In this document: piece by piece, positions 2,670-31,875 of the stretch
Position numbering within the stretch: position 1 is the first letter of the stretch
How the letters are laid out: every line of letters begins with the position of its first letter
From: an uncultured Chloroflexia bacterium
GTDB lineage: Bacteria; Chloroflexota; Limnocylindria; QHBO01
Assembly: GCA_963720505.1 (NCBI GenBank)
Contig: CAVRFT010000002.1
Span: forward strand, 105,589-169,588
Length of the DNA stretch: 64,000 nt
Direction of reading: 5' to 3'
Notes under the pieces: generated by a model
What the model saw: the letters and a program-made list of their open reading frames with translations, nothing else
Databases searched by the model: none
What the model was told of the DNA's origin: nothing
Position numbers and translations under genes: made by a program

Positions 2670-2755
2670 CGCTCCGATGATGCCATCACCGCTTGGCATG
2701 CCGCTTGCGGCCCCGTGGGGAGCGCGTGACCGACGCCCAACATTGAGGTGACCCG

Positions 2756-3907: not shown

Positions 3908-3909
3908 CG

Positions 3910-5122
3910 ATGCCGTCCGAGCACGCCCGCCACTGGCCGCTCGATCCGCGCATCGACTTCCTGAACCACGGCTCCTATGGCGCCGCCCCGCGCGTGGTGC
4001 TGGAGGCTCAGCAGACCTGGCGCCTGCAGCTGGAGCACGAGCCGGTTCGCTTCATGGTCGAGCAGCTGGAGCCGGCGCTGGACGCGGCGCGCGCCGCGGT
4101 CGGCGCCTTCGTGGGTGCCGCGCCCGATGACCTGGCCTTCATCACCAATGCCACCACCGGCGTGAACACGGTCCTTCGCTCCCTCCGCTTCGAGACGGGC
4201 GACGAGCTGCTGACCACCGACCACGCTTACAACGCGGTGGGGAACGCGATGGAGTACGTGGCGGCGCGCGATGGCGCGCGCGTGGTCGTGGCGGCCGTTC
4301 CGTTCCCCCTCGAGTCGCCTGACGCCGTGGTATCGGCCGTGATGGGCGCCGTCACGCCGCGGACTCGCCTGGCGGTGCTCGACCACGTCTCGTCGGCCAC
4401 CGCGTTGATCCTGCCGGTGGCCGAGCTGGTCGCCGCGTTGGCGGAGCGCGGGGTCGATACCCTGGTGGATGGCGCTCACGCGCCCGGCATGGTGGAGCTG
4501 GATGTGGCCGGCATGAACGCCGCGTACTACACGGGCAACCTGCACAAGTGGGTGTGTGCGCCGAAAGGGGCCGCCTTCCTGTGGGTCCGTCCGGACCGCC
4601 AGGAGCGCATCCGCCCGCTGGTGATCTCGCACGGCGCGAACTCGCCGCGCGCCGATCGGTCGCGGTTCAGGCTCGAGTTCGACTGGCTGGGCACTGGGGA
4701 TCCCTCGGCTTGGCTGGCGGTGCCGGACGCCATCGCACTTCGGCACGTCCCTGCTGCCGGGCGGCTGGCCGGCGCTGCGGGCTCGGAACCACGAGCTCAC
4801 GTTGAGCGCGCGCGAGCTCCTGGCGTCGGCCACGGGCGTGGCGTCCCCGGCGCCGGACGACATGATCGGGTCGATGGCCAGCCTGCCGCTGGGCTGGGAG
4901 GCGCAGCTCGGCACGGACCAGGACGTAGACCTGTACGGCGACCGCGTCCACGGCGCACTGCTGGCGGCGGGGTTCCAGACCATGATCGCCCCGTGGCCGC
5001 AGCGGCCGCAGGGGCGGCGCTGGCAGCGCGTGCTGCGGTTGAGCGCCGCCGCCTACAACGATCGAGCCCAGTACGAGCGCCTGGCGGCCGTCCTGCCGCA
5101 GATCCTGGCCGCGGCCGCCTGA
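3910..5122 (+). CDS. PLP-dependent class V aminotransferase (isopenicillin-N epimerase/EgtE-like lyase), frameshift near 4740
   Basis: FLNHGSYG, DGAHAPG, GNLHKW; C-terminal LRLSAAAYN in ORF 4802..5122. Confidence 0.9.
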
Positions 5123-5245
5123 GCATGGCGGCGCGCGGGATGTGGACGGGCTGGGGATAGGTTCGTCAACTCCCTGTCAAATTCGTGGAGAAAGCCCTTG
5201 AGCCAGCCTGGCCACGCCGATACGGTAGTTGCAGGCCGGGCGCCT

Positions 5246-5399
5246 CGGAGGTGCGACCCGATCAGCCACCGGAGGTGACACCGGACGCAACACTCGGCGC
5301 GACACTCGATCGCTCACTCGAGTCGACGGCGGCAACGTCTCGACCACGGGAGGCGGCACGGGATCGCACGCGGGACTGCGCACCGGACCATCCACTGGA
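5246..5399. repeat. Degenerate 12-bp tandem minisatellite, about 12 units
   Basis: Units such as ggtgacaccgga, tcagccaccgga, cgcgacactcga, tcgaccacggga, ctgcgcaccgga (consensus N5CACYSGA). Confidence 0.6.
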
Positions 5400-5556
5400 G
5401 CTGACGCGGGGGTTCCTCCGGGTCCCCGGCCTATTGCTGCCCGGATTCCGGGGAGCACGATAGGAGGCGGCCGCCTGCAGCCCTCGGGACGATGGTTTCT
5501 GCGGCTGCCTCTATCCGGTTCCAGCCCCCGGGACCGATGCCGCGAACCACCGCCCC

Positions 5557-5994
5557 TCATTCGCCAAGCGCGACGGCCGCATACGCCAGCGCGCCGATGA
5601 CGGGCACGAAGATGAGCGGGGTCGTCCCAGTCGTCCGGCCCGGACCAATCAGGGCCACCACCAGCGCGGCGACGCCCATGGCTGCCAGCACGATTCCGAG
5701 ACCCCTCGCCCACGAACGACGCCGCATTGCCTGGACGGCCACGACCGCGCCGGCGGCGCCATAGACCGCCAGTCCAAGGCCGATGGCACCGGCAACGCCG
5801 GCAAAGCCCTCCGGCACGGCATCGACGTAGGCAGGCAGCGCGTCCGGATTCGAGTTGACCATGACCACGACCAGCAGGACCAGGCCTATCAGGCCGGTGA
5901 ACACGCCGACCGTCAGCAGGATGAGCGCCGCCGCGGTAACGCTCAGCGGTCGCTCGTCAGGATCGGGAGAGGTCGGTTCGGATGCGCCCACCAC
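5557..5994 (-). CDS. Hypothetical membrane protein (4 TM)
   Basis: 145-aa ORF with four hydrophobic segments. Confidence 0.7.
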   Translation of the reverse strand: MVGASEPTSPDPDERPLSVTAAALILLTVGVFTGLIGLVLLVVVMVNSNPDALPAYVDAVPEGFAGVAGAIGLGLAVYGAAGAVVAVQAMRRRSWARGLGIVLAAMGVAALVVALIGPGRTTGTTPLIFVPVIGALAYAAVALGE

Positions 5995-6130
5995 CTGGCA
6001 GCCTCGCGCTAATCGGTCCTCAGCGGAGTCTACCCACGCGTCAAAGTCGCGCCCCTACCGGAGTTCAGCATCGCGGCTGCCTCCCAGGACGCCTCGGCCT
6101 GGACGATCAACCGGCTGATGCGTCATCTGG

Positions 6131-7443
6131 TCACGATTCCGGTTGGCCGGCGGCGACAACGGCGGGCGGCAGCCGGCGCCGACGGCGCTCCGGATCCCGG
6201 ACACCGGGGTAGAAGAGGAGCACGCCCATCAGGACCGATCCCACCAGGCCGGCGGCGATGATCGTGTTCTGCGGGCCGAGCGTGCCGGCGACTGGGCCCG
6301 TCAGAGCGAACGAGACCGGCACCAGGCCGGTTGACACCAGCCAGTCGAGGCTCGAGATCCGGCCGAGGAGATCGCGCGGCACTTCGGTCTGCAGCAGCGT
6401 CACCCAGATGATCGAGCCGATCTCGAACAACGAGGCGGTCAGGAGGCCGATGAGCATGCCCTGCCACAGCGACGTCATCAGGCCGTACCCCGCCAGCAGC
6501 GCGACGCCAAGCGCCCAGGCGGCGTACATGACGGTCACGTAACGCCGCGGCAGGCCGAGCTGGCCAATGGCGATCGCCGAGACCACGGAGCCGATGCCGC
6601 CGATCGCAAAGATCGCGCCGAGCGCCTCCGGCCCCAGAGCGAGCTGGTTCTTCACCAGGAACGGCAGGAGCACCTGCACCGGGCCGATGAAGCAGAGCAG
6701 GCTGAACATCGCCGACAGGAGCGTCGCCCACAGCCAGGGCGTCCGTCGAGCAAATGCGAGCCCTTCCCCTACCTCCGCGATGGCCTGGCGCACGCCGTGG
6801 GAAACGATCTCGCGAGCCGGCGGGCGGCTGATGGCCGCAATGGCCACGGCCGAGACAAGCGAAGCTCGCCGCGTCGATGAGGAACGCGGTGCCGGCGCTG
6901 GAGAGTGCGACGACGAAGCCGCCGACGTGCCGGACCGATGAGTCGGATGGTGAGCGGCCTGATCAGGCCGTTGAGCGCATTCGCCTGAGGCAGGAGCTCG
7001 TCCGGCAGCAGGTCGGGCACGATCGCCGTCGCCGCCGGATTGAAGAACGCGTCGCCCAGCCCGACGAACGCGATCAGGACGATGACGTGCCACAGCTCGA
7101 TGACGCCGTACAGCGACAGGATGCCGAGCAGGCCGATGGCAGCCGCTCGGATGATGTCGGCACCGATCATCAGGCGGCGGCGGTCGTATCGGTCCGTGAA
7201 GACCCCGCCCAGCAAAAGGAAGGCGATGAGCGGGACGGTCCAGGCCACACCGACGATGGAAAGCGCGGTGGGCACGTTGCTGATCTCATAGACCTGCCAT
7301 GCCAGCGCGATCGAAAAGAAGCCGTCGCCCAGGAGGGAGACGACCGACCCGGTGGTGAGCAGCGCGAAGTCGCGACGCACGAGCGGCTGGAACAGCCGCA
7401 CGGCGCGGAGCCGCTCGCGGAAATTGGGAGGCAGGAGCGCCAT
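6131..7443 (-). CDS. MFS transporter (DHA3/macrolide-efflux-like), frameshifted near 6850-6940
   Basis: GVFTDRYDRRRLM motif A; LLGRISS in C-terminal half; about 12 TM across two frames. Confidence 0.9.
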
Positions 7444-7468
7444 TCGTCAGGCCGCTAAAGCGGTGTGG

Positions 7469-7514
7469 TGGTGGACGACACTGGACTCAAACCAGTGACC
7501 TCGTGCACGTCAAG
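7469..7514 (-). mobile_element. Divergent 3'-half copy of tRNA-Val (att-like site)
   Basis: Reverse complement CTTGACGTGCACGAGGTCACTGGTTTGAGTCCAGTGTCGTCCACCA; 4 differences from the 3' half of the tRNA at 31799. Confidence 0.85.
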
Positions 7515-8248: not shown

Positions 8249-8350
8249 ACCTCTCGTCATGGCGAAGCTCAGGCCCGCGCCACTCGCGAAAGCACTCGCC
8301 GAAAACGCGATTACCGCCGATGTGGGGGTCATATGGTGCTCGGGAGGGTC

Positions 8351-8395
8351 TGGTGGGCGACAGTGGACTCGAACCAGTGACCTCTTGCATGTCAA
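8351..8395 (-). mobile_element. 3'-half copy of tRNA-Val (attR-like island boundary)
   Basis: tggtgggcgacagtggactcgaaccagtgacctcttgcatgtcaa matches 31799-31843 with 1 mismatch; ends at the anticodon loop. Confidence 0.92.
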
Positions 8396-9456: not shown

Positions 9457-9479
9457 TAGGGCCGGCGACGCCAGCCGCT
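9457..9479 (+). repeat. Repeat A copy 2 (left half, overlaps stop of 9478..9936)
   Basis: tagggccggcgacgccagccgct. Confidence 0.85.
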
Positions 9480-9936
9480 AGGGAGCCCGCTCGAACTCCC
9501 TGCCATCGATCGCGCCGCGACGGCCCGGGCATGCGTCATCAACTAACACGAGACGAAGGACGTCGTCCTCGACGGACCATTGGTAGGTGCCCACTCCACA
9601 CATGCCGCCCAGCAAGGTCACTTCCCCTGCCTCGACGTTGAGCATGCCCAGCACCTGCTCAATACCGGTTTCGAGGCGGTAGGTCGCATCTTCCATGATG
9701 TCCAGCATGACCGTGTCCCCGCCGGCGGTTTCCGCTCGCCACTCGCCTACCAGCTCAGGCGGTGGAGTGGGTCGTGGCGTTCGGGCCGCTGTCGGTATCG
9801 CTGAAGGGGAGGCGCTGCTAATCGAGGCTGGCACGGAAGCGCCTGGGGCGGCGCATGCGCTGAGGAGGAGCATCGCAAGCAGCGAACGCGGCACGCGCGA
9901 CGTCGAGGCGGTCAGCGCGATGAGGCTTCCCATCAT
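9478..9936 (-). CDS. Putative lipoprotein (cargo of B1)
   Basis: Lipobox LLLSAC, S/P/T linker, ELVGEW beta domain. Confidence 0.8.
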   Translation of the reverse strand: MMGSLIALTASTSRVPRSLLAMLLLSACAAPGASVPASISSASPSAIPTAARTPRPTPPPELVGEWRAETAGGDTVMLDIMEDATYRLETGIEQVLGMLNVEAGEVTLLGGMCGVGTYQWSVEDDVLRLVLVDDACPGRRGAIDGREFERAP

Positions 9937-9997
9937 CCCGTCGTCGACCCGCGCCGCTCGCGCAGCCGGTCGCTGAGCCGCCGCAGGGCCTGGCGTA
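9933..9997 (-). pseudogene. Repeat B copy 1 (3' remnant)
   Basis: Encodes ..ALRRLSDRLRERRGSTTG*; TGA overlaps downstream ATGs (ATGATG). Confidence 0.8.
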
Positions 9998-10018
9998 CTG
10001 CTGGTGGGGCGTGCCGTG

Positions 10019-11654: not shown

Positions 11655-13151
11655 TCAGCGATCGGGTCGCGCGGCCTGAATTCGCCACGTCGTGCCGTCG
11701 TAGTGACTCCACACCGCCAGGGCGCTGCGACGGGCGTCTATGGCCACCGGGGGATCTGAGGCCCGCGGGCCTGGCACTGACAGGGTCTGGACCATGCCGA
11801 GGTGGCCCAATGCCGTGCGGCGCCGGAGCTGGATGGATGCGAGGCCCGTCGCGTCGAACAGCTGCCAGACCACCAGCGCGTTATTGGCGGCATCGATCGC
11901 CAGCTGCGGACGGTAGGCCTCGAGGCCGGCCGGCGACAACATCTGTACCGCGTTCAGGCCGCCCGTGGCCGAGCGGCGGCGAAGCTCGATCCTCGGCTTG
12001 GGGCCGTCGTAGCCTTGCCATACCACCAGCGCGGCACCGTTCCCGTTGATCGCAACCTGTGGCAGGTCACCACCTGCCGCTGACAGGGTCTGGACCGCGC
12101 TGAGCGTGCCCGCTGCCGAGCGGCTACACAGCTGGATGCCCCCGACGCCCGACCACACCACCACCGCATTGCTGTTTCGATCGATCGCGACCTGCGGACG
12201 GCTAGCATCTCCACCGGCCGGTGACAGGGTCTGCACCGCGCTGAGGCTGCCGGCGGCCGAGTGGCGGCGGAGCTGAATGCGGTCGTTAGTGCCGTCGTGG
12301 TGCGTCCACACCACTAGCGCGTTGCCGTTGGTGTCCATCGCCAGCTGTGGATACGCGGCGGCCCCGGGAGACAGCGTCCTGATCGGGCCCAGCGTGCCCG
12401 ACGCGGAGCGGCGACGGAGCTGGATACGGTAGGGTCCTGCTTGCTCGGCGCCGGTCCAGACCACCACCGCATTGCCGTGCCGATCGATCGCGACCTGCGG
12501 TCCGTATGCGTCAAACCCGAGGCCGGAGAGGGTCTGCACCGGGCCAAGCGTTCCGGAAACCGCGCGGCGGCGCAGTTGGATGACGTGGTTGTTCCCATTC
12601 CACAGCGTCCACACCACCAGCCCATTGCCGTTCCCATCGAGCGCGACCTGCGGCTGCGAGGCGTCGCGGTGAGCGGGCGACAGGGTCTGGACCGGGCTGA
12701 GGCTGCCCGACGCAAAGCGGCGGCGGAGCTGGATCCGGCCGTGGAAGCCGTCGGAGCGACCCCACACCACCAGCGCGTTGCCCTTGCTGTCGATCGCCAC
12801 TTGCGGCTCGTTTGCATCCCCGGCAAGGGGAGAGATGGTTTCCGCCAATGCCGCCTGCTGCTGACCGGCGAGCGACAGAATCTGTGGATGCGATGTGGCA
12901 ACTCGATCAGGGGCAGCTGCTCCGGTAACCGGAACAGCGGGCAAGGTGAGAGCTCCTGCCACCATCAACGAGACAAGGCCGCGCTCGAGGTGTCTCCTGG
13001 GAGAAGGCATACGGCTCTTCACGGCGTGATGCAGCGGCTGGGAAGCCTCAGTTGATTCCGCGTCCCGTCTTTGCCGCCAGACGATGAAAGCGACAACCTC
13101 GACGGCAACCGCGATGCCGGCGACGGCCCAACGGATCAAGCGCCAGTTCAT
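11655..13151 (-). CDS. Exported protein with 8 tandem ~50-aa repeats (probable beta-propeller)
   Basis: Eight PQ(V/L)A(I/L/M)DxxGNA(L/V)VVW-type repeats. Confidence 0.8.
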   Translation of the reverse strand: MNWRLIRWAVAGIAVAVEVVAFIVWRQRRDAESTEASQPLHHAVKSRMPSPRRHLERGLVSLMVAGALTLPAVPVTGAAAPDRVATSHPQILSLAGQQQAALAETISPLAGDANEPQVAIDSKGNALVVWGRSDGFHGRIQLRRRFASGSLSPVQTLSPAHRDASQPQVALDGNGNGLVVWTLWNGNNHVIQLRRRAVSGTLGPVQTLSGLGFDAYGPQVAIDRHGNAVVVWTGAEQAGPYRIQLRRRSASGTLGPIRTLSPGAAAYPQLAMDTNGNALVVWTHHDGTNDRIQLRRHSAAGSLSAVQTLSPAGGDASRPQVAIDRNSNAVVVWSGVGGIQLCSRSAAGTLSAVQTLSAAGGDLPQVAINGNGAALVVWQGYDGPKPRIELRRRSATGGLNAVQMLSPAGLEAYRPQLAIDAANNALVVWQLFDATGLASIQLRRRTALGHLGMVQTLSVPGPRASDPPVAIDARRSALAVWSHYDGTTWRIQAARPDR

Positions 13152-13263
13152 GGCTGGCCTCCATCTGCACGACTCTCACTGGATCGTTGCCTCTGCGGCT
13201 CAATCCCGCCAGTGCCGAAAGTCATTCCCATGGGATCACTCGGTGCCTGGCCGACGCACACGA

Positions 13264-13333
13264 TAGGGCCGGCGACGCCAGCCGCTCGCCATCCGAGGTA
13301 CAGATGGCCCCGCTGCCACGGAGCGCCGGCCCT
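13264..13333 (+). repeat. Repeat A copy 4 (full)
   Basis: tagggccggcgacgccagccgctcgccatccgaggtacagatggccccgctgccacggagcgccggccct. Confidence 0.95.
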
Positions 13334-13411
13334 GATCAAGACTGGCGCTGGCCGCTTACGCGGCACGCTGCGAACCACGGCCTAGGCATCGCCCTCCAGC
13401 AGCGCGATGTG

Positions 13412-14878: not shown

Positions 14879-14889
14879 ATCCGCTTTGG

Positions 14890-14955
14890 TGGGCCGGCGA
14901 CGCCAGCCGCTCACCATCTCACGGGAGGGCCGCGCTGCCACGGATCGCCGGCCCA
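14890..14955 (+). repeat. Repeat A copy 7 (full, extension to ~14991)
   Basis: tgggccggcgacgccagccgctcaccatctcacgggagggccgcgctgccacggatcgccggccca. Confidence 0.9.
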
Positions 14956-15000
14956 GGCGATGTTGTCAGTGGCCGCTTACCCAACGGCTTATCGGGGCCA

Positions 15001-15348
15001 TTACCTCATCGCCGAGCAATACTCGTGCGGGATCAGACAGTTTCCCCAAGACACGTAGAGCAAGAACGTCACGCCGAGCACGGCGATCACGATGGTGGCG
15101 GTCCGCCCCAAAGCTGAGCCGTTGAAGGCGTACCACAGCAGCCCGACCACGACCGCCAGGCCAACCGTCACCATCCCGTTGGTGCTGATGACAGTGTCCA
15201 CCATCCCCTCTGGCATCCCCGCGCCGAACGCATCGGCACTGGGCAGGAACTGGGACACCAGGATCGGGACCGCCACGCCCAGCATCACCAAGACACTGGC
15301 CGTGGCCGCTCCGAGGAGCCGCGAGGACTGCTGACTCAACGCTCCCAC
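15001..15348 (-). CDS. Hypothetical membrane protein (3 TM; cargo of B2)
   Basis: 115-aa hydrophobic ORF starting 8 nt after the B2 stop. Confidence 0.7.
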   Translation of the reverse strand: MGALSQQSSRLLGAATASVLVMLGVAVPILVSQFLPSADAFGAGMPEGMVDTVISTNGMVTVGLAVVVGLLWYAFNGSALGRTATIVIAVLGVTFLLYVSWGNCLIPHEYCSAMR

Positions 15349-15356
15349 GTCCCCGC

Positions 15357-15581
15357 CTAGCCCGTACTAGACCCGCGTCGCTCCCGCAGCTGGTCGCTGA
15401 GCCTCTGCAGGGCCAGGTATTCCCATCGCCCCACCCCGCTGGCGTAGTCATCGAAGGCCGGACCCTCGGCGACCGATACCCACTCCTGGCCGAACCGCCA
15501 CACGCCAAGGATCTGCCAGCCGAGCGGCAGCGATGCCTCAGCGGATATTCAGGCTTGCGAGAGGGCGCCCAAGGGTGCCAT
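15357..15581 (-). pseudogene. Repeat B copy 2 (full length, codon 11 TGG>TGA)
   Basis: MAPLGALSQA*ISAEASLPLGWQILGVWRFGQEWVSVAEGPAFDDYASGVGRWEYLALQRLSDQLRERRGSSTG*; TAGACT 6 nt upstream of ATG. Confidence 0.9.
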
Positions 15582-16725: not shown

Positions 16726-16736
16726 AGGCTCAATAG

Positions 16737-16804
16737 TAGGGCCGCCGACGCCAGCCGCTCGCCAATCCTGGGGGATGGTCACGCTGCCACGGAGCGCCGG
16801 CCCT
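16737..16804 (+). repeat. Repeat A copy 9 (full, extension to 16840)
   Basis: tagggccgccgacgccagccgctcgccaatcctgggggatggtcacgctgccacggagcgccggccct. Confidence 0.92.
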
Positions 16805-16837
16805 GGGTGATGCTGGCAGTGACCGCTTGCTGGCGGC

Positions 16838-17218
16838 TTAGATGCAACCGCCAGGCTCGGCGTCAATCCCCTCAAGCCACGGACGCAGCGGCACCTCCGT
16901 TCCCCCGGAGCTGGTGTAGATGGCCGTGTCGGGGTCGCGGAGCACGATGCTGCCGTGGTCCCAGACGGAATTGCCGTCGGTCACCTTCACATCGGCCCCA
17001 ACCACCAACGCCCCGGTGGGCACCTCCGCCGGTATCCAGACCGCGCCATTGATGTAGACCAGCTGAAGGCCGCAGTGGACCGATGCGGTGTGCGGGTAGT
17101 GCACGCCGATGGCCGGGTTTTGCAGGTTCGAGTTGTGCTCGGGAGTTGGCGAGGCAAGCAGGCCTTGGCATCCCGTCGTCAGGACGGCAGCAATGGCGAG
17201 GAGGAACCCCTTCGTCAT
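16838..17218 (-). CDS. Putative lipoprotein
   Basis: MTKGFLLAIAAVLTTGC lipobox; HCG motif; ATGA overlap with the upstream gene. Confidence 0.8.
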   Translation of the reverse strand: MTKGFLLAIAAVLTTGCQGLLASPTPEHNSNLQNPAIGVHYPHTASVHCGLQLVYINGAVWIPAEVPTGALVVGADVKVTDGNSVWDHGSIVLRDPDTAIYTSSGGTEVPLRPWLEGIDAEPGGCI

Positions 17219-17574
17219 GATTCGTCCCAGCAAGGGACTTCCTGCTCGAACTCGACGCCCGTGTCCCTGAGGAAGGCCGTGACCGTGCACCGATCCACAT
17301 AGCCCCACAGCGCCTGCTCCATCTCGAGCCGCTCGATGTCTAGGGCGTCAAGCCCGTCGGGGTATTCGAGGTCCTTGCGGAGGATGGTGACTCCCCATGC
17401 TCCACATGCGGGGATCCCCTCGGAGGTGAAGTGGTTGTCGGTATGCGTCGACCCGTCGCACTCGAACTCGGTTGGCACCCCCGCCAGTGACGTCGCACTG
17501 CCGGAGTGGTACAGGCTGGCGGCGACAAGCAGGCCAACCACCGCCGCCCCGATGTACGTCACTGCAACGCGCAT
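17215..17574 (-). CDS. Exported hypothetical protein (cargo of B3)
   Basis: N-terminal hydrophobic segment, 4 Cys; TGATG overlap with B3. Confidence 0.75.
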   Translation of the reverse strand: MRVAVTYIGAAVVGLLVAASLYHSGSATSLAGVPTEFECDGSTHTDNHFTSEGIPACGAWGVTILRKDLEYPDGLDALDIERLEMEQALWGYVDRCTVTAFLRDTGVEFEQEVPCWDES

Positions 17575-17798
17575 CAGCCTGTCGTCGACCCGCGCCGCTC
17601 GCGCAGCCGGTCACTCAGCCGCTGCAGGGCTAGGTATTCCCATCGGCCTACGCCGCTGGCGTAGTCATCGATAGCCGGACCTTCGGCCACCGATACCCAC
17701 TCCTCGCCGAACCGCCAGACGCCAAGGATCTGCCAGCCGAGCGGCAGCGAAGCCTCAGCCGAGGTCCAAGCTTGGGAGAAGGCGCCGAGCGCGGTCAT
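17574..17798 (-). CDS. Repeat B copy 3: intact 74-aa small protein
   Basis: MTALGAFSQAWTSAEASLPLGWQILGVWRFGEEWVSVAEGPAIDDYASGVGRWEYLALQRLSDRLRERRGSTTG; start and stop both overlap neighbouring genes. Confidence 0.85.
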   Translation of the reverse strand: MTALGAFSQAWTSAEASLPLGWQILGVWRFGEEWVSVAEGPAIDDYASGVGRWEYLALQRLSDRLRERRGSTTG

Positions 17799-18472
17799 GA
17801 GGAGGCCAGGACCCGGATTGCGCCGTTGTGGAACCGGACACACAACTGGGTCCGGCCCGCGACGTCGCGAAGGAATAGCCGGGCCCGGTTGATGTTTGGC
17901 GCCTGGGGGTTGGCGATCTCCGCCAGTTCGATGAAGCGGTTGGTGAAGACCTTGCCGTCGAAGTAACCCGCCCAGCCGTCGTCGCTGCTGCCGCGGACGC
18001 CTTGACCCTTGGGGCTGTGGCCCCACACGCCCTTGCTTAAGGTGTCCTGGGCCGCGTACCCATATACGCCGGTCTTGCGATTGCCGACTGGCGGCGTAGC
18101 GGAACTATTGCCGCTGTAGCCGACGACCCCAGTGTGGTTCCCGTCTCCCTCTCCCCGGATGGCCGGCTGATTCGTCGCGAACGTGCGGCCGACGATACCC
18201 ACGTATTGCTGACTGGCTCCAAACAGGCCCCCTCCAACGACGCATTGCGCCCCGAGACCCACGCCACCGTCCGGATTGGTGTTCACCAAGCTGGTGTTGC
18301 TGGTCGATGTGTTGTCCACCCCGATAATCAGCGGATCACCGCTGGCGGCCTGCGCCGGATTGGCGCGACTGGCGACACCGACCGCCCAGGCGCCGACGCC
18401 GCCAAGGGCGCCGGCCAGCAGGGCTCGACGGCTGCGCGGCTTGGACGTGGAGGTTTGAATGGGCGCGGTCAT
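17795..18472 (-). CDS. Tat-exported Gly-rich protein
   Basis: GGAGGAG RBS; SRRALLAG twin-arginine signal with AQA site; G(V/I)xG repeats. Confidence 0.8.
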   Translation of the reverse strand: MTAPIQTSTSKPRSRRALLAGALGGVGAWAVGVASRANPAQAASGDPLIIGVDNTSTSNTSLVNTNPDGGVGLGAQCVVGGGLFGASQQYVGIVGRTFATNQPAIRGEGDGNHTGVVGYSGNSSATPPVGNRKTGVYGYAAQDTLSKGVWGHSPKGQGVRGSSDDGWAGYFDGKVFTNRFIELAEIANPQAPNINRARLFLRDVAGRTQLCVRFHNGAIRVLASS

Positions 18473-18569
18473 AGCCGACTCCTCCGTGCCTCGCGGCGCA
18501 CTGCTGACATTCCAGTGCGCCTGCAATCACGCAAAGGCTAAGCCCGTCGTCCATGCCCAAGCGCCGCCT

Positions 18570-19174: not shown

Positions 19175-19315
19175 CGGCGTCAGTGTCCCTCAAGTGCTGC
19201 AGCAGGCCCATCACCTCGCCGCAAGCAACGGCCTGCGCCGCCCGGTTATGGGCACAAGCCGGGTACGAAACCTTGGGCTGCGCGAGGGTACCAATATGCC
19301 CGCTACACCGTAGAA

Positions 19316-19381
19316 GCCGGCGACGCCAGCCGCTCGCCATCCGAGGTACAGATGGCCAGGCTGCCACGGAGCGCCGGCCCT
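19316..19381 (+). repeat. Repeat A copy 11 (full, extension to 19417)
   Basis: gccggcgacgccagccgctcgccatccgaggtacagatggccaggctgccacggagcgccggccct. Confidence 0.95.
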
Positions 19382-19414
19382 GGTCGATGATGGCGGTGGC
19401 CCCTTATCGGCGGC

Positions 19415-19908: not shown

Positions 19909-19954
19909 GCCGGCCCTGGTCGATGGTGGCGGTGGCCGCTCACCGGCCCGCTTA
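19909..19954 (+). repeat. Repeat A copy 12 (right tip plus extension)
   Basis: gccggccctggtcgatggtggcggtggccgctcaccggcccgctta, close match to 19373-19417. Confidence 0.8.
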
Positions 19955-20395
19955 GCTCAGTTCGTCGACGGAGAATTCTATCTGCCAGTCCTGCCCTTTC
20001 AGCCAATACGATGGGAGGAAGACGTGCGGCTGATCAGCCACTTGGATCACATAGCGACCGAGATCAGGAAGATCGGTGACCTCCCAGAAGAACTTGCACC
20101 CGACCGGATGGAATTCATCCGGAGGAGTGATCCCCTCACTCAGCTGCCCTTCGCCAAGTAACTGTTGGGTCGGACTGGTCACCCGCACCAGGGCGCCTGG
20201 CGCGAGGTCCGCGTATTTTCCGGCTCCCACGCACGTCCCGTCTCCGAGGTCGGTGAAGTCTTCGCCGGCGGGCAGTTCGATGGTGAATGACCCAGTCATC
20301 GTGCGGCGCACCGGGGCCGGCGATTCCGCTGGCGTACACGCCACGAGCAGCACGACCACAGCCAGCCCGGCGCTGAATCGCTCGGTTGGCGTCAT
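19952..20395 (-). CDS. Putative lipoprotein (cargo of B4)
   Basis: MTPTERFSAGLAVVVLLVAC lipobox; CxGxGxYxDL motif; ATGA overlap with B4. Confidence 0.8.
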   Translation of the reverse strand: MTPTERFSAGLAVVVLLVACTPAESPAPVRRTMTGSFTIELPAGEDFTDLGDGTCVGAGKYADLAPGALVRVTSPTQQLLGEGQLSEGITPPDEFHPVGCKFFWEVTDLPDLGRYVIQVADQPHVFLPSYWLKGQDWQIEFSVDELS

Positions 20396-20616
20396 CCGGT
20401 GGTTGGCCCTCTCCGCTCCCGCAGCCGATCGCTGAGGCGCTGCAGAGCCAGGTACTCCCATCGCCCGACGCCACTGGCGTACTCCTCGAACGTCGGACCT
20501 TCGGCCACCGATACCAACTCTTCGCCGAACCGCCACACGCCGAGGATCTGCCAGCCCAGCGGCAGCGATGCCTCCGCACTGACCCAGGCCTACTAGAGGG
20601 CGCCCAGGGCCGCTCT
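20392..20616 (-). pseudogene. Repeat B copy 4 (start lost, TAGTAG at 20590-20595)
   Basis: ..ALGAL**AWVSAEASLPLGWQILGVWRFGEELVSVAEGPTFEEYASGVGRWEYLALQRLSDRLRERRGPTTG*; TACGAT upstream. Confidence 0.9.
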
Positions 20617-25340: not shown

Positions 25341-26454
25341 ATGTCGCGCTTCCGTCTCGCCACGTTCGCCACCCTCGCGCTGTGCCTGACCGCGATGCTG
25401 CCCGCGCCGGTCCTGGCAGCCGCGCCGAAGCTGGGAACTGGCGTCGTCCAGCATGGACTGACCATCCCTTGGGACGTGGCCTTCGCGCCGGGCGGCCAGA
25501 TGTTCGTCACCGAGCGACCGGGTCGGGTGCGCGTCTTCCAGAGCGGCAAGCCCAATGCGCCGTTGCTGGGCACTTCGACCATCCCTCGGGTGCATGCGGA
25601 CGGCGAGGCCGGCGCGATGGGCATCGCCCTCGATCCCCATTTCGCAGTGAGTCGCTTCGCGTATGTCTGCGCCTCGCGCCAGGTCCAGGGTCAGTGGCGC
25701 AACCAGGTGATCAAGTACCACGTCAACCGCCGGTGGAAGCTGGACTTCCAGCGCTTCATCATCCGGTTGGGTATGCACGCGGCCGCCAGCCACAACGGCT
25801 GCGCCGTGCAGGTCGGGCCGGATAACAAGCTGTGGGTGACCATGGGCGACGCCGGCCACGCCAAGTGGGCCCAGATTCCGAATCGGCGCAACGGCAAGGT
25901 GCTCCGTGTCAACCTGGACGGGAGCGTGCCGGCCAGCAACCCGATCTGGCCGGGCAACAGCGCGCCCGACCATCGTGTACTCGATCGGGCATCGCAACCC
26001 GCAGGGCATCACCTTCGAGCCGATCACCCATCGCGCGTATGCGGCCGAGCACGGTCCCGACCGCGACGACGAGATCAACTGGATCCGGCCGGGCCGCAAC
26101 TATGGCTGGCCGTGCGTCACCGGGATGAATCACGTGAATACGGGCTGCGCCGGGACCTTCTCGCTTCCGGCATGGTCGTCCGAGGGCCCGACCCTGGCCA
26201 CCTCCGGCGCCACCTTCGTGAACAACGCGAACTGGGAGAGCTGGAACAAGAGCCTGTTCGTGTCGACGCTGAAGGAGTCGGACCTGCGGCGCTTCAGGGT
26301 CAAGGCCGATACCTGGAAGCTCACGATGCGCGACACGTTGTTCAACATGCGCTGGGGTCGCCTGCGGGCGGCGGTGATGGGCCCGTTTGGCAAGCTCTAC
26401 CTGACCACCTCAAATGGCAACAACGACAAGGTCGTGCGCATCACCCCGAACTGA
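25341..26454 (+). CDS. PQQ-dependent sugar dehydrogenase (GSDH/YliI family), frameshift near 25960
   Basis: PWDVAFAP..VTERPG, HNG, GDAG, GHRNPQG, EHGP, GRNYGWP, GRLR. Confidence 0.9.
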
Positions 26455-26521
26455 CCGGGCTCCAAGGCGGCTCACGCTAGGCCCCCAGCTAAGCGTCGAG
26501 GGCTGCCATCGGCACGGATTT

Positions 26522-26590
26522 GGGGCCGGCGCCGCCAGCCGCTCGCCATCCGAGGTACAGATGGCCACGCTGCCACGGAGCGTCGGCCCT
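26522..26590 (+). repeat. Repeat A copy 15 (full)
   Basis: ggggccggcgccgccagccgctcgccatccgaggtacagatggccacgctgccacggagcgtcggccct. Confidence 0.95.
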
Positions 26591-26841
26591 AGGCGATTCT
26601 GGCGGTGCCCGTTGGTCGACCGATTGCTGCGATTGAAGGATCGCCGCCGCGGCGGCCCCATACGTCGTAGAGGCGGTCGCTTTGGCTGCCAACGTGGAGG
26701 GTGGTTGTGGCTGAGCACCAGCAGCAGAAGTCGCCAATGCGCACCTCGACTCCAGCGACCTTATCGGCCGTGGGCGCGCTGGTCCCTGCCGGCCGTGGCC
26801 GGACGAAGGGAAAGCGTATGCTCGCTGAGGCGCGCTCCGTG

Positions 26842-28029: not shown

Positions 28030-28068
28030 GCGAGCGGTTGTCCGACATCAAGTAGGCTAGTTTGCTAA

Positions 28069-28136
28069 GGGGCCGGCGACGCCAGCCGCTCGCCATCCGA
28101 GGTACAGATGGCCACGCTGCCACGGAGCGCCGGCCC
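28069..28136 (+). repeat. Repeat A copy 16 (full, consensus-like)
   Basis: ggggccggcgacgccagccgctcgccatccgaggtacagatggccacgctgccacggagcgccggccc. Confidence 0.95.
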
Positions 28137-28235
28137 GGAGGCGATCCTGGTGGTCGCCCGTCATCGGCGCCTATCCAACGCTTTCGCAGGTCGCGCTATT
28201 AGGCATGACCGACTCCCGCCGCTAGCGCGGCCCCG

Positions 28236-28682
28236 CTACCGGTTCCGGCGCCATATCGCGAAGTTGAGCGCCGTCGCAAAGCTGACCCAGCCCAGGTACG
28301 GGAGGAGCAGGACACCTGCGACGGGCCGTCGTGAGAAGAACGCCGCCACGGTCCCGACAAGGGCAACCCACAGCAGGACGATGTTGATGAGCGCTAGCCC
28401 CGGTGCCCGGAGGCCGAAAAAGACGGGGGTCCACGTGGCGTTCAGCGCCAGCTGCGCACTCCAGAGCGCCAACGGTGTGCGAGATGCCGAGCCGCCCTTG
28501 CCTGCGACGAGCCACGCCGCGATGCCCATGAGCGCGTACAGGACCGTCCATACGGGGCCGAAGAGCCACCCCGGCGGTGCCCAGGACGGCTTCTCAAGAC
28601 GAGCGTAGTACTCGGGCGCAGGAAACCGGTAGCCAATCACAGCCGGCACGAAGGCGAGGACGAGCCAGCGAAGGAGTCGCAT
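28236..28682 (-). CDS. tspO: TspO/MBR tryptophan-rich sensory protein
   Basis: LEKPSWAPPGWLFGPVWTVLY..QLALNATWTPVFF..PYLGWVSFATALN. Confidence 0.93.
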   Translation of the reverse strand: MRLLRWLVLAFVPAVIGYRFPAPEYYARLEKPSWAPPGWLFGPVWTVLYALMGIAAWLVAGKGGSASRTPLALWSAQLALNATWTPVFFGLRAPGLALINIVLLWVALVGTVAAFFSRRPVAGVLLLPYLGWVSFATALNFAIWRRNR

Positions 28683-28724
28683 GGCGGCGTGCGCTTGCAC
28701 ATCGAGTGCCTGAACGACACAAGT

Positions 28725-29170: not shown

Positions 29171-29590
29171 GTGGATGGGACCTCGCTCATCGCCGTCGCT
29201 GCAAGCCTGCTCGGGGTGTGGCTGCTGCTCATCGCCGTGCTGTGGCTGCTCAGACCGCGCGACGTGCAGCTCGGGCAACTGGTCCGCGTTGTGCCCGATG
29301 TGCTGCGCCTAATCCGGCAGTTGCTCGGCGATTCGTCTACCCCGCTCGGGGTGCGACTGGCCTTGATCGGACTGCTGGCCTGGCTCCTCAACCCCATCGA
29401 CCTGATTCCCGAGTTCATCCCGGTGCTCGGTCCACTCGACGATGTGGTGGTGGCGGTGCTGGTCCTGCGCTACGTCCGCCGCCGCCTGGGTGACGAGGAA
29501 CTGCGCGAACGATGGCGTGGCACACCCGATGGCTACGCGCTGCTTAGCGGGATTCTCGGCTCAAACGGCCGTTCATCGAAGAACGGCTGA
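29171..29590 (+). CDS. DUF1232/YkvA family membrane protein, leaderless
   Basis: PIDLIPEFIPVLGPLDD; CACACT 6 nt before GTG. Confidence 0.92.
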   Translation: MDGTSLIAVAASLLGVWLLLIAVLWLLRPRDVQLGQLVRVVPDVLRLIRQLLGDSSTPLGVRLALIGLLAWLLNPIDLIPEFIPVLGPLDDVVVAVLVLRYVRRRLGDEELRERWRGTPDGYALLSGILGSNGRSSKNG

Positions 29591-29808
29591 CCCGTTGTCG
29601 GTCCTCTCCGCCCCTGCAGCCGGTCACTGACCCGCTGCAGGGCCAGGTATTCCCATCGGCCGACGCCACTCGCGTAATCGTCGAATGATGGGCCTCCGGC
29701 TACCGATACCCACACCTCGCCGAACCGCCATACCCCGAGGTTTGCCAGCCGAGGGGCAGCGATGCCTCAGCTTAGACCCAGGCTTGGGAGAGAGCTCCGA
29801 GGGGCCAT
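29591..29808 (-). pseudogene. Repeat B copy 5 (indels and stop)
   Basis: ..GALSQAWV*AEASLPLGWQ/LGVWRFGEVWVSVAGGPSFDDYASGVGRWEYLALQRVSDRLQGRRGPTTG; TACGAT 6 nt before ATG. Confidence 0.88.
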
Positions 29809-30156
29809 CCCTGGATCGTAGGGGCGTGGTCCGAACCTACTGGCTGGGCTGTGCAGCGCGCCGGGCCACCGCCACGCCAGCGCCAATCGTTGCCACCCAG
29901 ATCCCGTAGGCCAACCGAGGCGGGCGGACTCGCGCGGAGTGGATGCCACTCGCGCCGTTCAGGATCACGCATGGCGTCCCAGGCTGAAATCGACCCGATG
30001 GCAAGGCCTAACCCGATCACAACTGAGGATGCCGGGATGGTACCTGATGACAGGCGTTAGGCCGAAGCCGACCAGCGCGTACTGGGTGCGACCGCGCTAG
30101 CCATCTACCGCCTCCCCCAGTAACCGGAGCGGCGGCACCGACAAAGACCCGTCGCC

Positions 30157-30223: not shown

Positions 30224-30403
30224 AGCGCAGGTGAGGGGAGACCCTATTGAACCCGGCGCTAACACGCGTTGACTGGCCTCTGACCCGAAGGGTATTCGGC
30301 AGACCAAGATTGGGCAATGACTATGGGCCCCGCTGACCGGATTACCGATCGGGGGACTATTGGCCCGCGAACACACTCGATTTCGCAGGCCCGCCACTTG
30401 CGA

Positions 30404-31588
30404 ATGTGCAGGTTCGTGACATGGCAGCTGATCGAGCGGCCCTTGGTGGCCGCGGCATACGCAGTCAACCTGGCTGTGCGCGCTCGGCACGGCCTTCGCA
30501 GCCGCGGACGGCAGACTGGGACAGCGGAGGGCATCATCCGCTCGTGTATCGACGAGTGCTGGGATGGGACCCACTATCGAGCCAGCGCAGGGCATTTCCG
30601 GCAGTTCTGGACTCGGGACCTCAGTTTCAGCGCCCCGGCCCTGGCTCGCCTCAGTCCGGGGCATGCCGACCGCGTCATCCGATCCTATGAGTGGGCGATC
30701 CGCACTTGGCAGCGCCGCCGCAGCCATGTCACGACCACGATCCACTATTTCGATCAACCCGTCGACGTCTTCGACTTCGGCGTCGATTGCCTGCCGCTGA
30801 TGTTGGCCGCCCTGCGGCGGGTGGGGGCCGAGGATCTCCTTGAGGAGCACCGAGCGTGGCTGGAGGGCGAGGTGCGGCACTACGTGGATGAGGTGGTGGA
30901 CCCCCGCACCGGCATGGTGCGGGGTGACCGCAAGTACAGCGCCCACCGCGACACCATCGTCAACCGCTGCAACGCCTTTGGGAACAGCATGGTGGCCTTG
31001 CTGGCCATGACGGTCGCGGAACTGGGCTGGGAGCTACCCGAACGCTTGCGCCCGCTCGCGCTCGCCCCCCAGAGCATTCTGCTTGATCGCTTCTGGGATG
31101 CACGGGGCTTCTTCATCGACTCCATCGGCGATAACACGCCATCCGGCGAAGGCAATATCTGGCCCTTCTGGACGGGCGTGGTTACCGATGACGCCGTCCT
31201 GCGCACGGCCCTCCACGAGCTGGAGGCGCGAGGGTACGCGGACCCCTACCCGCTTAAATACGAGGTCGCCCGTCGACCGCAGCTCGAGCCGCTGTTCGTG
31301 CGAACGTTCATGCCTGACTACCAAGGCGCCACGGTGTGGACCTCACTGGGCTCGATGTACCTGCAGCTGCTCCACACGTGCGACCCGGCGTTGGCGCGCC
31401 CTGAGATCGTTCGCTACCGGACCTGGATCGAGCGGGATGGGACCTTCTGGGAGGTCATCGATGATGAGACCGGAGAGCGGTACCGCTCGACCTTCATGAC
31501 CCGCAGCGACGAGGGCATGCTGTGGTCCGCGATCTTCCTCGACCTACTTGAAAACCCCGATCTCCCGCCGGCCACCATGCGGCCGTAG
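30404..31588 (+). CDS. Six-hairpin glycosidase-like protein (start uncertain)
   Basis: HFRQFWTRD, YQGATVW, FWE motifs typical of (alpha/alpha)6 glycoside hydrolases. Confidence 0.7.
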   Translation: MCRFVTWQLIERPLVAAAYAVNLAVRARHGLRSRGRQTGTAEGIIRSCIDECWDGTHYRASAGHFRQFWTRDLSFSAPALARLSPGHADRVIRSYEWAIRTWQRRRSHVTTTIHYFDQPVDVFDFGVDCLPLMLAALRRVGAEDLLEEHRAWLEGEVRHYVDEVVDPRTGMVRGDRKYSAHRDTIVNRCNAFGNSMVALLAMTVAELGWELPERLRPLALAPQSILLDRFWDARGFFIDSIGDNTPSGEGNIWPFWTGVVTDDAVLRTALHELEARGYADPYPLKYEVARRPQLEPLFVRTFMPDYQGATVWTSLGSMYLQLLHTCDPALARPEIVRYRTWIERDGTFWEVIDDETGERYRSTFMTRSDEGMLWSAIFLDLLENPDLPPATMRP

Positions 31589-31685: not shown

Positions 31686-31752
31686 TTAGCCGCTCGCCGG
31701 TCCTCGCCGCTCCCGCAGCCGGTCGCTGAGCCGCTGCAGGGCCAGGTATTCC
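31686..31752 (-). pseudogene. Repeat B copy 6 (3' remnant 46 bp downstream of the tRNA)
   Basis: EYLALQRLSDRLRERRGPASG*; TAATG overlap with a decayed signal-peptide-like start. Confidence 0.85.
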
Positions 31753-31798
31753 TGCGGCCCCTGTTAAGGCGGTCTAGTTCGTGCTCAGAAAGGGTGTT

Positions 31799-31875
31799 TG
31801 GTGGGCGACACTGGACTCGAACCAGTGACCTCTTGCATGTCAAGCAAGTGCTCTAACCAGCTGAGCTAGCCGCCC
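31799..31875 (-). tRNA. tRNA-Val(GAC)
   Basis: GGGCGGCTAGCTCAGCTGGTTAGAGCACTTGCTTGACATGCAAGAGGTCACTGGTTCGAGTCCAGTGTCGCCCACCA; full cloverleaf, encoded CCA. Confidence 0.98.

Follow-up and report, generated by a model that had tools for sequence, protein, structure and literature searches.

A lineage-restricted 74-residue protein with a predicted dsRBD-like fold, present in six copies, one of them intact, in a tRNA-Val island of Candidatus Limnocylindria

Polymorphic toxin loci contain orphan modules, in which a conserved 5' stub is joined to a variable 3' part. Integron cassettes are mostly promoterless, and the attC sites of integrons carry the boxes RYYYAAC and GTTRRRY. Limnocylindria are abundant, uncultured Chloroflexota of soil and freshwater, and to our knowledge their mobile genetic elements are essentially undescribed. 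Integron and CALIN arrays contain small unrelated ORFs and imperfect-palindrome repeats of ~100 nt, as given in an extract of the source (Nucleic Acids Res 2016, PMC4889954). Islands of the tycheposon model start at a full tRNA gene and are marked by partial tRNA repeats, degenerated remnants and tRNA-proximal variability, according to an extract of the preprint (bioRxiv 10.1101/2020.12.28.424599). Neither the gene family nor the arrays described below were found in the titles and abstracts of the literature on Chloroflexi integrons or attC sites and on Limnocylindria.

Here we analyze a window (the whole stretch of DNA studied) of 64,000 nt, in which a 74-codon ORF, labelled B, occurs six times. 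All six copies lie within a 23-kb additive island that is seeded by a tRNA-Val gene and flanked by partial tRNA repeats (Table 1). Small cassettes follow one another along the island, each closed by a hairpin repeat, A. Our preferred account, to which we assign a probability of about 0.6, is that B is a real family with a dsRBD-like fold that heads modules in tRNA islands, that its spare copies in the window were recently disabled, and that the protein is likely a binding adaptor.

The tRNA-Val island and its cassettes

As far as the extract of the tycheposon preprint goes, the island has the same full-tRNA start, partial repeats, remnants and tRNA-proximal variability as the model, and several tRNAs are used across genomes. 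It departs from that model in having no integrase in the window, and the hairpin-punctuated cassettes and B are not among the features given in the extract. A search with the integrase family PF00589 gave no match in the window and four in the genome, which is 71% complete; two of these are ORFs that look Xer-like by eye, and the other two are neighbouring parts of a single broken integrase of phage type (C2:2.5-3.1 kb). In a related island at tRNA-Lys in genome G011, a frameshifted tyrosine recombinase is present. The Rfam search of the window returned tRNA only, and a further copy of the 48-nt tRNA-Val repeat was located at 7466-7513 (83%). In the loci of relatives, core synteny is kept up to the tRNA and is variable beyond it. 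In 9 of 46 loci B has a same-strand tRNA gene upstream, where the density of tRNA genes (50 in the 2.53-Mb genome) leads us to expect at most ~2.

Table 1. Positions of B copies, adjoining genes, repeats and the tRNA gene within the 64,000-nt window
Feature	Position	Strand	Description
B1	9933..9999	-	3' stub; tblastn 9936-9989 = residues 57-74
B2	15357..15581	-	full length; TGA for Trp at codon 11; tblastn 15360-15581, 88%
B3	17574..17798	-	sole intact window copy; 74 codons + TGA; translation 74 aa + stop, as first noted; tblastn 17577-17798, 100% identity
B4	20392..20616	-	full length; start codon gone; TAG TAG at codons 8-9; tblastn 20395-20586, 89% over residues 11-74
B5	29590..29812	-	two frames in tblastn (29590-29801); TAA at codon 13
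B6	31686..31760	-	3' stub, codons 51-74 + TAA; tblastn 31689-31760
Lipoprotein gene coupled to B1	9478..9936	-	lipobox LLSAC
115-aa hydrophobic ORF	15001..15348	-	starts 9 nt past B2 stop codon
Probable lipoprotein gene	16838..17218	-	MTKGFLLAIAAVLTTGC...; ATG overlaps stop of 119-aa ORF (ATGA)
119-aa ORF coupled to B3	17215..17574	-	N-terminal hydrophobic segment
243-aa ORF upstream of B3	17795..18526	-	twin-arginine-like signal SRRALLAGALGG by eye; no Pfam match
Lipoprotein gene coupled to B4	19952..20395	-	lipobox LLVAC
Repeat A	14885..14981	-	closes B2 module
Repeat A	16733..16829	-	closes B3 module; then TACTAT, 7 nt, lipoprotein gene ATG
Repeat A, full copy	19308..19404	-	
Repeat A, 5' half copy	19909-19947		after B4 module
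tRNA-Val(gac)	31799..31875	-	seeds island
Direct repeat of tRNA-Val 3' half	8348..8395	.	96% identical to 31796-31843; distal island border; family D14

The copies of B were located by tblastn of the intact 74-aa protein against the window, which returned six sites, all on the minus strand; a repeat search also picked these copies up, under families D1 and D4. The preliminary description of this DNA had counted six copies with one intact, and both searches agree with it: besides the intact B3, three copies (B2, B4 and B5) are full length but disabled near the 5' end, and B1 and B6 retain only the 3' end, as had also been reported. At the DNA level B1 begins at about codon 49 and contains a 4-nt deletion, the homology of B4 reaches to ~20610, and B6 follows the tRNA at a distance of 39 nt from its 3' end. 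Homology between copies ends exactly at the B stop codon. Nonsense codons within the first ~13 codons of B2, B4 and B5, a further claim of the preliminary description, are present in all three. The lesions had been called substitutions and not indels, yet not all of them are: in B5 the TAA is joined by a pair of 1-nt deletions, one near codon 3 and one near codon 23, and the stop codon is gone (TCA). B4, in addition, has lost its start. The frameshifts of B5 could stem from long-read indel errors.

The cassettes resemble integron and CALIN arrays, as the extract of that source depicts them, in their small unrelated ORFs, mostly in one orientation, their imperfect-palindrome repeats of ~100 nt and the lack of an adjacent integrase. 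They differ in that A lacks attC boxes (0 of 20 copies carry both RYYYAAC and GTTRRRY, on either strand), the genome, 71% complete, yielded no integron integrase, and a -10-like box of its own follows A in 11 of 37 copies. A Y1 transposase, considered as a partner for the hairpin, was absent in all five genomes searched. It is very doubtful that A and B together constitute an undescribed, integrase-free cassette system of Limnocylindria, in which A would serve as recombination site and outward leaderless promoter and B as a dsRBD-fold factor that recognizes the hairpin, as RNA or single-stranded DNA, and through translational coupling drives any envelope-protein gene that has recombined in behind its 3' end.

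Outside the window, the same genome carries an intact B (C7:201922-202143, 59% identity), and B fragments form another cluster at C7:287-297 kb. Modules made of a B 3' end and a lipoprotein gene are common to the two arrays of the genome: the B1 module recurs at C7:289357-289877 (97.9% identical), and a paralogue of the B4-module lipoprotein gene, with a B 3' end attached, is found at C7:290208-290684 (80% identity).

A conserved family under purifying selection

Among 144 candidates, 143 proteins were homologous to B at E<=0.001, most of them 74 aa long, and clustering at 50% left 134 representatives. The 21 loci in metagenome-assembled genomes include 12 from Candidatus Limnocylindria, 4 from Chloroflexota, 2 from Chloroflexia and 2 labelled Gemmatimonadales. 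B is present in 12 of 13 genomes of the same genus and in 19 of 40 genomes of relatives. Judged by these homologues, B is a genuine, lineage-restricted family of Candidatus Limnocylindria (soil Chloroflexota), found mainly in one genus. The search for longer or fused forms gave a single match, a 270-aa protein with B at its C-terminus, which by eye is an over-extended ORF.

Synonymous changes dominate among the window copies (dS 0.48-0.87, dN 0.035-0.125). The dN/dS check named in the preliminary description, where a value near 1 was to count against a real gene, gave 0.07-0.16 for B2-B5, pairs of broken copies included. Together with the conserved, mostly 74-aa family, ratios of ~0.1 bear out the claim that B is a real gene. 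On these ratios, the four full-length window copies evolved under purifying selection, so it is the protein itself that matters. In a comparison with 56 database homologues, B2-B5 form a single clade (support 98/91). Since they are old duplicates that arose within one lineage, their inactivation would be recent; and one clade combined with dS of 0.5-0.9 and low dN/dS suggests that several copies stayed functional for a long time. The earlier proposal that extra copies are costly fits poorly with such long-retained functional copies.

It had also been asked whether B might be a piece of a known transposase or phage gene, and the searches argue against this. No family of Pfam, NCBIfam or PHROG matched B, and no relative was found in the viral contigs of IMG/VR. 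At the level of fold, the phage matches were uncharacterised phage proteins only (best E = 1.6e-4), and a search of the ESM Atlas returned unnamed clusters only. Among public sequencing runs, no RNA run was found to contain window sequence; 20 soil or rhizosphere runs contain <=25% of sampled window words, and the contigs from four such runs were of low depth and 150-400 nt long, none of them shown to span the B stop codons.

Predicted fold of B and its likeness to dsRBD and HicA

AlphaFold2 modelling of B from a 121-sequence alignment gave pLDDT 92 and pTM 0.81, superseding a model from 33 sequences (pLDDT 68) that had no useful Foldseek match. The elements of the model (helix 3-16, strands 23-30, 33-39 and 46-51, helix 54-71) follow the alpha-beta-beta-beta-alpha order that the preliminary description had guessed, a guess with which the structural neighbours also agree. 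Structural matches are headed by dsRBDs, at middling Z scores of 5.2-7.2 (for VIA-align, top Z 6.9-7.2 with an rmsd of 2.7-2.9 A over 61-62 residues), which, being below 8, may reflect merely a common arrangement. By title, ~34 of the 50 matches listed are dsRBD proteins. The best Foldseek E-value was 0.016, and scores nearly as high as those of dsRBDs were obtained for ribosome hibernation factors and for the N-terminal region of YcaO. B is predicted to be a 74-residue cytoplasmic protein with a dsRBD-like fold.

Canonical dsRBDs contact RNA through a Glu in helix 1, GPxH in loop 2 and KKxAK at the opening of helix 2. B has the same topology and similar length as these domains of ~70 residues, and its neighbours are the dsRBDs of Dicer, Staufen, TRBP, Loquacious, ADAR and RNase III; three of them, Staufen dsRBD5, TRBP dsRBD3 and Loqs dsRBD3, we take to be protein-binding rather than RNA-binding. 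It differs from dsRBDs in that no profile match was obtained: dsrm (PF00035) matched neither P0001 at E<=0.01 nor any of 44 members at E<=10, and a profile search against PDB sequences gave a single chance-level match. It also differs in that the canonical loop-2 and helix-2 motifs are absent, whereas the helix-1 Glu is kept; the near-invariant columns of the 121-sequence alignment include E15, but neither a His within the beta1-beta2 loop nor a pair of Lys at residues 52-56 is among them. In contrast to RNase III, in which the dsRBD is one domain, B is a stand-alone bacterial protein.

HicA toxins, too, are small proteins that stand alone and fold much like a dsRBD, and their gene comes first of the two in its module. 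B nevertheless differs from HicA in having no HicA profile match, no conserved catalytic His and no HicB partner (HicB matched neither the downstream genes of the window nor 10 neighbouring ORFs of relatives), and in that its downstream genes vary. The earlier wording, dsRBD- or HicA-like, is thus supported for likeness of fold and not for family membership. These comparisons also bear on the idea that B belongs to an addiction module, as its toxin or its antitoxin, and that unpaired copies were inactivated as harmful. Toxin-antitoxin modules are common in cassette arrays, and a small dsRBD-fold protein that comes first in an overlapping bicistronic module, with extra copies inactivated early and repeatedly, would be in keeping with one. 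We nonetheless regard this as extremely unlikely, given that HicA and other toxin-antitoxin families found no match in the 44 members at E<=10, that no conserved His is present among the near-invariant columns, that the downstream partners do not belong to one antitoxin family, and that several paralogues were long kept under purifying selection.

The predicted fold had led to the suggestion that B binds hairpin A, as RNA or single-stranded DNA, and as a dedicated factor controls cassette expression or recombination. A does form an imperfect hairpin in which one base pair covaries, with A-U in place of G-C in 5 of 20 copies, though its folding z-scores are unremarkable (-1.9 to +0.2). A and B co-occur in the arrays of this genome and in loci L004 and L018, and all five same-genus genomes with an A core also have B. 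The distributions of the two nevertheless part company among relatives, where the A core is found in only 6 of 40, fewer than contain B; no A lies near the conserved copy of B that follows tRNA-Leu(caa), and an integrase-bearing island contains four A copies and no B. This mismatch weakens the idea that B binds A, and of the three dsRNA-contact regions only the helix-1 Glu is conserved; we consider such a dedicated role improbable. A search for DNA similarity between A and B, or for an A-like core within B, gave local alignment scores that 10-77% of shuffles reached, as expected by chance.

In our preferred account, B would most likely act as a small adaptor whose C-terminal helix, conserved and basic (R60, R66, R68 and R69), binds either structured RNA or a partner protein. 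This function is suggested by fold and genomic context.

Modules headed by B and the loss of its copies

B is typically the first gene of its module, preceded by a -10-like TAnnnT box and 6-9 nt, in the layout of a leaderless gene. Boxes had been reported 6 nt before the ATG of B2 (TAGACT) and B5 (TACGAT); both were confirmed, and B4 has one as well (TACGAT) upstream of its mutated ATG. Across 46 loci, TAnnnT is found 6-9 nt before the start in 19 of 33 near-full copies. The intact B3 sits within a four-gene operon in which every gene overlaps start to stop: its ATG shares bases with the stop codon of the gene before it (ATGA), and its TGA with the ATG of the gene after it (TGATG). A homologue of this downstream gene comes after a B fragment in the relative locus L018. 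Overlap with the downstream gene is also seen at B1 and B4, each with a lipoprotein gene (ATGA), at B6 (TAATG), and at C7:289835 and C7:290630, while among copies elsewhere it is found in 9 of 33. In this genome the gene downstream of B encodes a lipoprotein or membrane protein in all five readable cases. Outside it, a hydrophobic N-terminus was recognised by eye in just 4 of the 9 genes that overlap B downstream, so the link between B and envelope proteins is not general. The downstream partners are unrelated to one another and include lipoproteins, membrane proteins and SnoaL-like proteins.

The layout resembles that of the orphan modules of polymorphic toxin loci, in which conserved stubs lie directly upstream of variable genes and are repeated in an array, an arrangement that by analogy may permit swapping by homologous recombination. 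It differs in that B and the variable genes are separate ORFs and that the variable genes have no recognised toxin domain. A fixed recombination breakpoint within B was considered and rejected: some stubs begin at codons 49-52, but the match ends of partial homologues span residues 24-64.

These features could also be read as B being chiefly an expression platform, a leaderless, efficiently translated lead ORF that re-initiates downstream genes devoid of an RBS and whose repeats swap envelope genes, with any activity of the protein secondary. Stop/start overlap at most B copies of this genome would be expected of such a platform, as would homology that ends at the B stop codon, 3' stubs retained before lipoprotein genes in both arrays (one of the stubs being fused in frame to another ORF) and 5' pieces of B fused to lipoprotein ORFs in L004 and P0160. 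The low dN/dS, the constant length and the confidently predicted fold, however, point to selection on the protein, and 24 of 33 copies elsewhere have no overlapping downstream gene. We judge this reading unlikely as a whole. Within the account that we prefer, the 3' stubs may have been kept because lipoprotein genes depend on them for their upstream flank and for the context of coupling.

The position of the lesions bears on how the copies were lost. In nine copies from seven genomes, 8 of 11 stops fall in the first 22 of 74 codons, whereas just 29-38% of single-step nonsense paths do (P = 0.004-0.03, from a small sample and with the 22-codon threshold picked after the data were seen). The poorly aligned loci L054, L055 and L058-L064 were omitted from this test, and L045, read later, lies just outside the threshold. 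Early stops in other genomes are at codons 2, 12, 15, 22 and 23. It is somewhat unlikely that the broken copies show no more than redundant paralogues decaying neutrally in an island rich in junk, with the 5' bias of lesions due to chance. Such decay is in line with the small number of stops and with the presence of other broken genes in the island (a 3' fragment of GSDH and an MFS gene split over two frames), and it is the skew towards early codons that speaks against it.

We suggest that the other window copies, as redundant paralogues, have only recently been disabled. Where a module is leaderless and translationally coupled, an early stop would abolish B and at the same time uncouple or silence the downstream gene. 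Silencing of coupled cargo by early knockout of B, as the preliminary description had proposed, is plausible from the pattern of lesions.

If a link between A and B were real, it would point to a new kind of cassette system, and in the integrase-free system considered above, if true, the array of stubs and silenced copies would form a reservoir from which surface-protein modules could be switched. B itself would add to the proteins with a dsRBD-like fold, as predicted, a bacterial family that stands alone and belongs to neither RNase III nor HicA. As a marker of variable tRNA-linked islands of Limnocylindria, it offers a sequence handle for finding such islands in metagenomes. The combination of a promoter, a leaderless B, a coupled envelope gene and many silenced or truncated copies may provide a testable model for control by a lead ORF of horizontally acquired surface proteins.

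Copies of B in the window and descent of the family

The 74-aa protein quoted in the preliminary description is the translation of B3, and a tblastn search of the window (G+C, 68%), whose relatives go under the names Candidatus Limnocylindria or Chloroflexota, with this protein confirmed the six copies reported there, all on the minus strand. The DNA alignment of the copies showed that the stop codon of B is the exact limit of homology among them and that a TAnnnT box lies 6 nt upstream of the present or former ATG in B2, B4, and B5. The ATG of B4 has also been mutated away, and B5, besides two additional 1-nt deletions, no longer has a stop codon. In the source genome, G000 (2.53 Mb in 7 contigs, 71% complete), a further intact copy with 59% identity was located on contig C7, where additional fragments cluster at 287-297 kb.

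Coordinates of B copies, repeat A, and neighboring features (window positions unless a contig or locus is named)
Feature	Position	Strand	Remarks
B1	9936-9989	-	3' stub (tblastn)
B2	15360-15581	-	TGA at codon 11 (tblastn)
B3	17574-17798	-	intact
B4	20395 to about 20610	-	TAG TAG at codons 8-9
B5	29590-29801	-	TAA at codon 13; two reading frames (tblastn)
B6	31689-31760	-	3' stub (tblastn)
B outside window	C7:201922-202143		intact
Repeat A	8641-30192		e.g., 13260-13356, 16733-16829, 19308-19404, 26517-26613, 28064-28160
Repeat A outside window (G000)	C7:272984-295808; C2:333025-333087
tRNA-Val(gac)	31799-31875
tRNA-Val 3' 48-nt copies	31796-31843; 8348-8395; 7466-7513		direct copies
423-aa ORF	30317-31588	+
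498-aa ORF	11655-13151	-
GSDH 3' fragment	25342-26459		87% identical to C3:634984-636100
TspO gene	28240-28699		81% identical to C6:410827-411286
MFS transporter gene	6131-7443	-	two frames
66-aa ORF	C7:199636-199836 (G000); L018 2621-2821		contains TGCSECLLDRVM

Nei-Gojobori comparisons among B2 to B5 gave dN/dS values of 0.07 to 0.16 (dS, 0.48 to 0.87), as expected of the real gene that had been proposed, and the low ratio persisted even when both copies compared were broken. B2 to B5 formed one clade (support, 98/91) in a tree built together with 56 homologues from databases, and the C7 copy grouped apart from them in the other main clade. The single clade and the low dN/dS mark the full-length window copies as old duplicates within the lineage, kept under purifying selection, with lesions that would be recent relative to the divergence of the copies. 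The earlier suggestion that extra copies are costly fits poorly with such long shared purifying selection.

A search of a 5.8-billion-protein collection gave 144 candidates, 143 of which are homologues at an E value of ≤0.001; a length of exactly 74 aa prevails, none carries a Pfam domain, and their sole annotation is "hypothetical protein." An exhaustive HMMER scan yielded 134 cluster representatives, of which many are incomplete or chimeric. No match to B was found in Pfam, NCBIfam, or PHROGs or in a profile search of PDB sequences, and 44 members searched against Pfam at an E value of ≤10 gave nothing relevant. B is present in 12/13 genomes of the genus, 18/24 of the family, and 1/16 from other families of the class, tallies that take in the unpublished genome G017, whose matches are weak and which contributed no sequence to the analysis.

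Predicted fold of B

AlphaFold2 modeled B with a pLDDT of 68 from 33 sequences and with a pLDDT of 92 and a pTM of 0.81 from 121 sequences, placing helices at residues 3 to 16 and 54 to 71 and strands at 23 to 30, 33 to 39, and 46 to 51. Foldseek returned nothing from the PDB at an E value of ≤0.001; its best matches (E = 0.016 to 0.05) were the dsRBDs of Staufen, RNase III, and Rnt1p and the YcaO N-terminal region. VIA-align against 48,161 representatives gave 61 chains at a Z score of ≥5 and none at ≥8, led by a Dicer dsRBD (Z, 6.9; rmsd, 2.9 Å over 61 residues) and Staufen dsRBD5 (Z, 6.8). Among the 50 matches listed, judged by their titles, about 34 were dsRBDs, 10 were ribosome hibernation factors, and 2 were YcaO proteins; reexamination of Foldseek's own matches gave a maximum Z of 7.2. 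The model and the dsRBD matches support the topology that had been proposed for B from sequence alone. At such scores, the likeness of the predicted structure to dsRBDs is one of fold and not of family membership. In the BFVD, two uncharacterized phage proteins matched the model at an E value of ≤0.001.

The near-invariant residues in the 121-sequence alignment lie mostly in the hydrophobic core (L4, L7, W11, W22, W34, L58, L61, and L65) and also include E15, G40-P41, G51, and a basic C-terminal patch (R60, R66, R68, and R69).

tRNA-seeded islands and repeat A

The 3' 48 nt of tRNA-Val(gac) occur as three direct copies, the middle one 96% identical, which enclose a 23.4-kb island and an extra 0.9-kb segment, and B1 to B6 all lie between them. 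No integrase was found between the three part-copies, and the window holds no tyrosine recombinase gene. The 423-aa ORF adjoins the tRNA, where an integrase might be expected; it has no Pfam match and is not recombinase-like by eye. The MFS transporter gene beside the outermost repeat spans two frames, through either a frameshift or an assembly indel error.

Nearly every cassette of the island ends in repeat A, a hairpin repeat of about 100 nt with at least 13 copies or part-copies there, all oriented as B. The genes that A divides are small and unrelated (SnoaL-like, DUF1801, SRPBCC, P-loop kinase, TspO, DUF1232, response regulators, PD40 propeller, and a GSDH fragment). The GSDH fragment and the TspO gene are divergent duplicates of genes located at other sites in G000, so copies or fragments of host-related genes are present in the island. 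Repeat units of about 150 nt (families D2, D8, and D10) make up the 498-aa ORF, which has no clear Pfam family.

A is predicted to fold as an imperfect hairpin with one covarying pair and unremarkable z-scores; it had no match in Rfam, attC boxes were absent from 20/20 copies, and no Y1 transposase was found in the 5 genomes searched. The likeness of the island to integron arrays and CALINs, as these are presented in PMC4889954, is in layout only. The conserved 3' end of A, with the core GAGCGGCTGGCGTCGCCGG, is followed within 2 to 4 nt by a TAnnnT box in 11/37 copies, against 0.4% of random 16-nt windows, and a start codon lies 6 to 9 nt past the box in 7 of these 11. Because its conserved end precedes such a box, A may double as a cassette boundary and an outward leaderless promoter.

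At nine of 46 related loci, B lies 0.3 to 2.1 kb downstream of a same-strand tRNA gene (Val-gac, Pro-ggg twice, Thr-tgt, Arg-cct, Leu-caa twice, Cys-gca, and Ser-tga), and at a tenth a B stub is followed by a tRNA. With 50 tRNAs in a genome of 2.53 Mb, at most about two same-strand tRNAs would be expected in 46 flanks of up to 4 kb. Upstream of the B-linked tRNAs the loci are syntenic with G000, and beyond them they differ. In the minimal case (L045, 1-1100), 0.6 kb separates tRNA-Leu(caa) from a B pseudogene that has a TACTCT box of its own and a TGA at codon 23, and 55 nt from the 3' part of the tRNA are repeated after the pseudogene; the arrangement resembles a relic of a small B-carrying element that had integrated there. 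The 66-aa ORF recurs in islands 3' of different tRNAs in two genomes.

In the relative G011, a 4.8-kb insertion (L065, G011:C6:238500-248500, 2031-6814) separates a 5' part-copy from the full tRNA-Lys(ctt); four A copies there adjoin a tyrosine recombinase gene split over several frames, and B is absent. The corresponding G000 site lacks this insertion; there the tRNA is followed by an A copy and a partial tRNA repeat. The layout of this island and of the window fits the model of additive tRNA-seeded islands as outlined in bioRxiv 10.1101/2020.12.28.424599. The A core was found in 5/13 genomes of the genus and in one genome elsewhere, a tally that loss of repeats from short-read MAGs may affect. 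From these distributions B seems to be independent of A, and the binding of B to A raised as a possibility in the preliminary description is not favored.

Coupling of B and the position of its lesions

The 46 loci include 33 near-full B copies, 28 of them intact; a TAnnnT box stands 6 to 9 nt ahead of the start in 19 of the 33, and the stop overlaps a downstream start in 9. In the source genome such coupling is the rule: B3 lies within four genes linked by ATGA, TGATG, and ATGA overlaps, and lipoprotein genes are overlapped by B1 (lipobox LLSAC), B4 (LLVAC), and the stubs at C7:289835 and C7:290630. The two arrays share whole modules that join a B 3' end to a lipoprotein gene (97.9% identity over 521 nt; 80% over 483 nt), and in relatives (L004 and P0160) lipoprotein ORFs are fused to 5' pieces of B. 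Outside the source genome the coupled partners are mixed, with a hydrophobic N terminus in 4/9 by eye; SnoaL-like and small soluble proteins also occur among them.

Stops fall at codons 8, 9, 11, and 13 in the well-aligned window copies and elsewhere at codons 2 (L014), 12 (L052), 15 (L051), 22 (L056), 44 and 68 (L021), and 46 (L019), a count that left out the poorly aligning L054, L055, and L058 to L064. The first 22 codons thus hold 8/11 stops, from 7/9 copies, although only 29 to 38% of single-step nonsense paths lie there (binomial P, 0.004 to 0.03). Because the 22-codon threshold was picked after the data had been seen, this 5' skew is only a hint; L045, read after the test, would land just beyond it. 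An early stop in a leaderless, coupled module would remove B and would presumably also end reinitiation on the downstream gene and perhaps transcription into it. Silencing of coupled cargo by early stops in B, as had been proposed, is plausible. Overall, the best description of B is that of a new family, restricted to its lineage, that has a predicted dsRBD-like fold and provides the leaderless first gene of small modules within tRNA-seeded islands.
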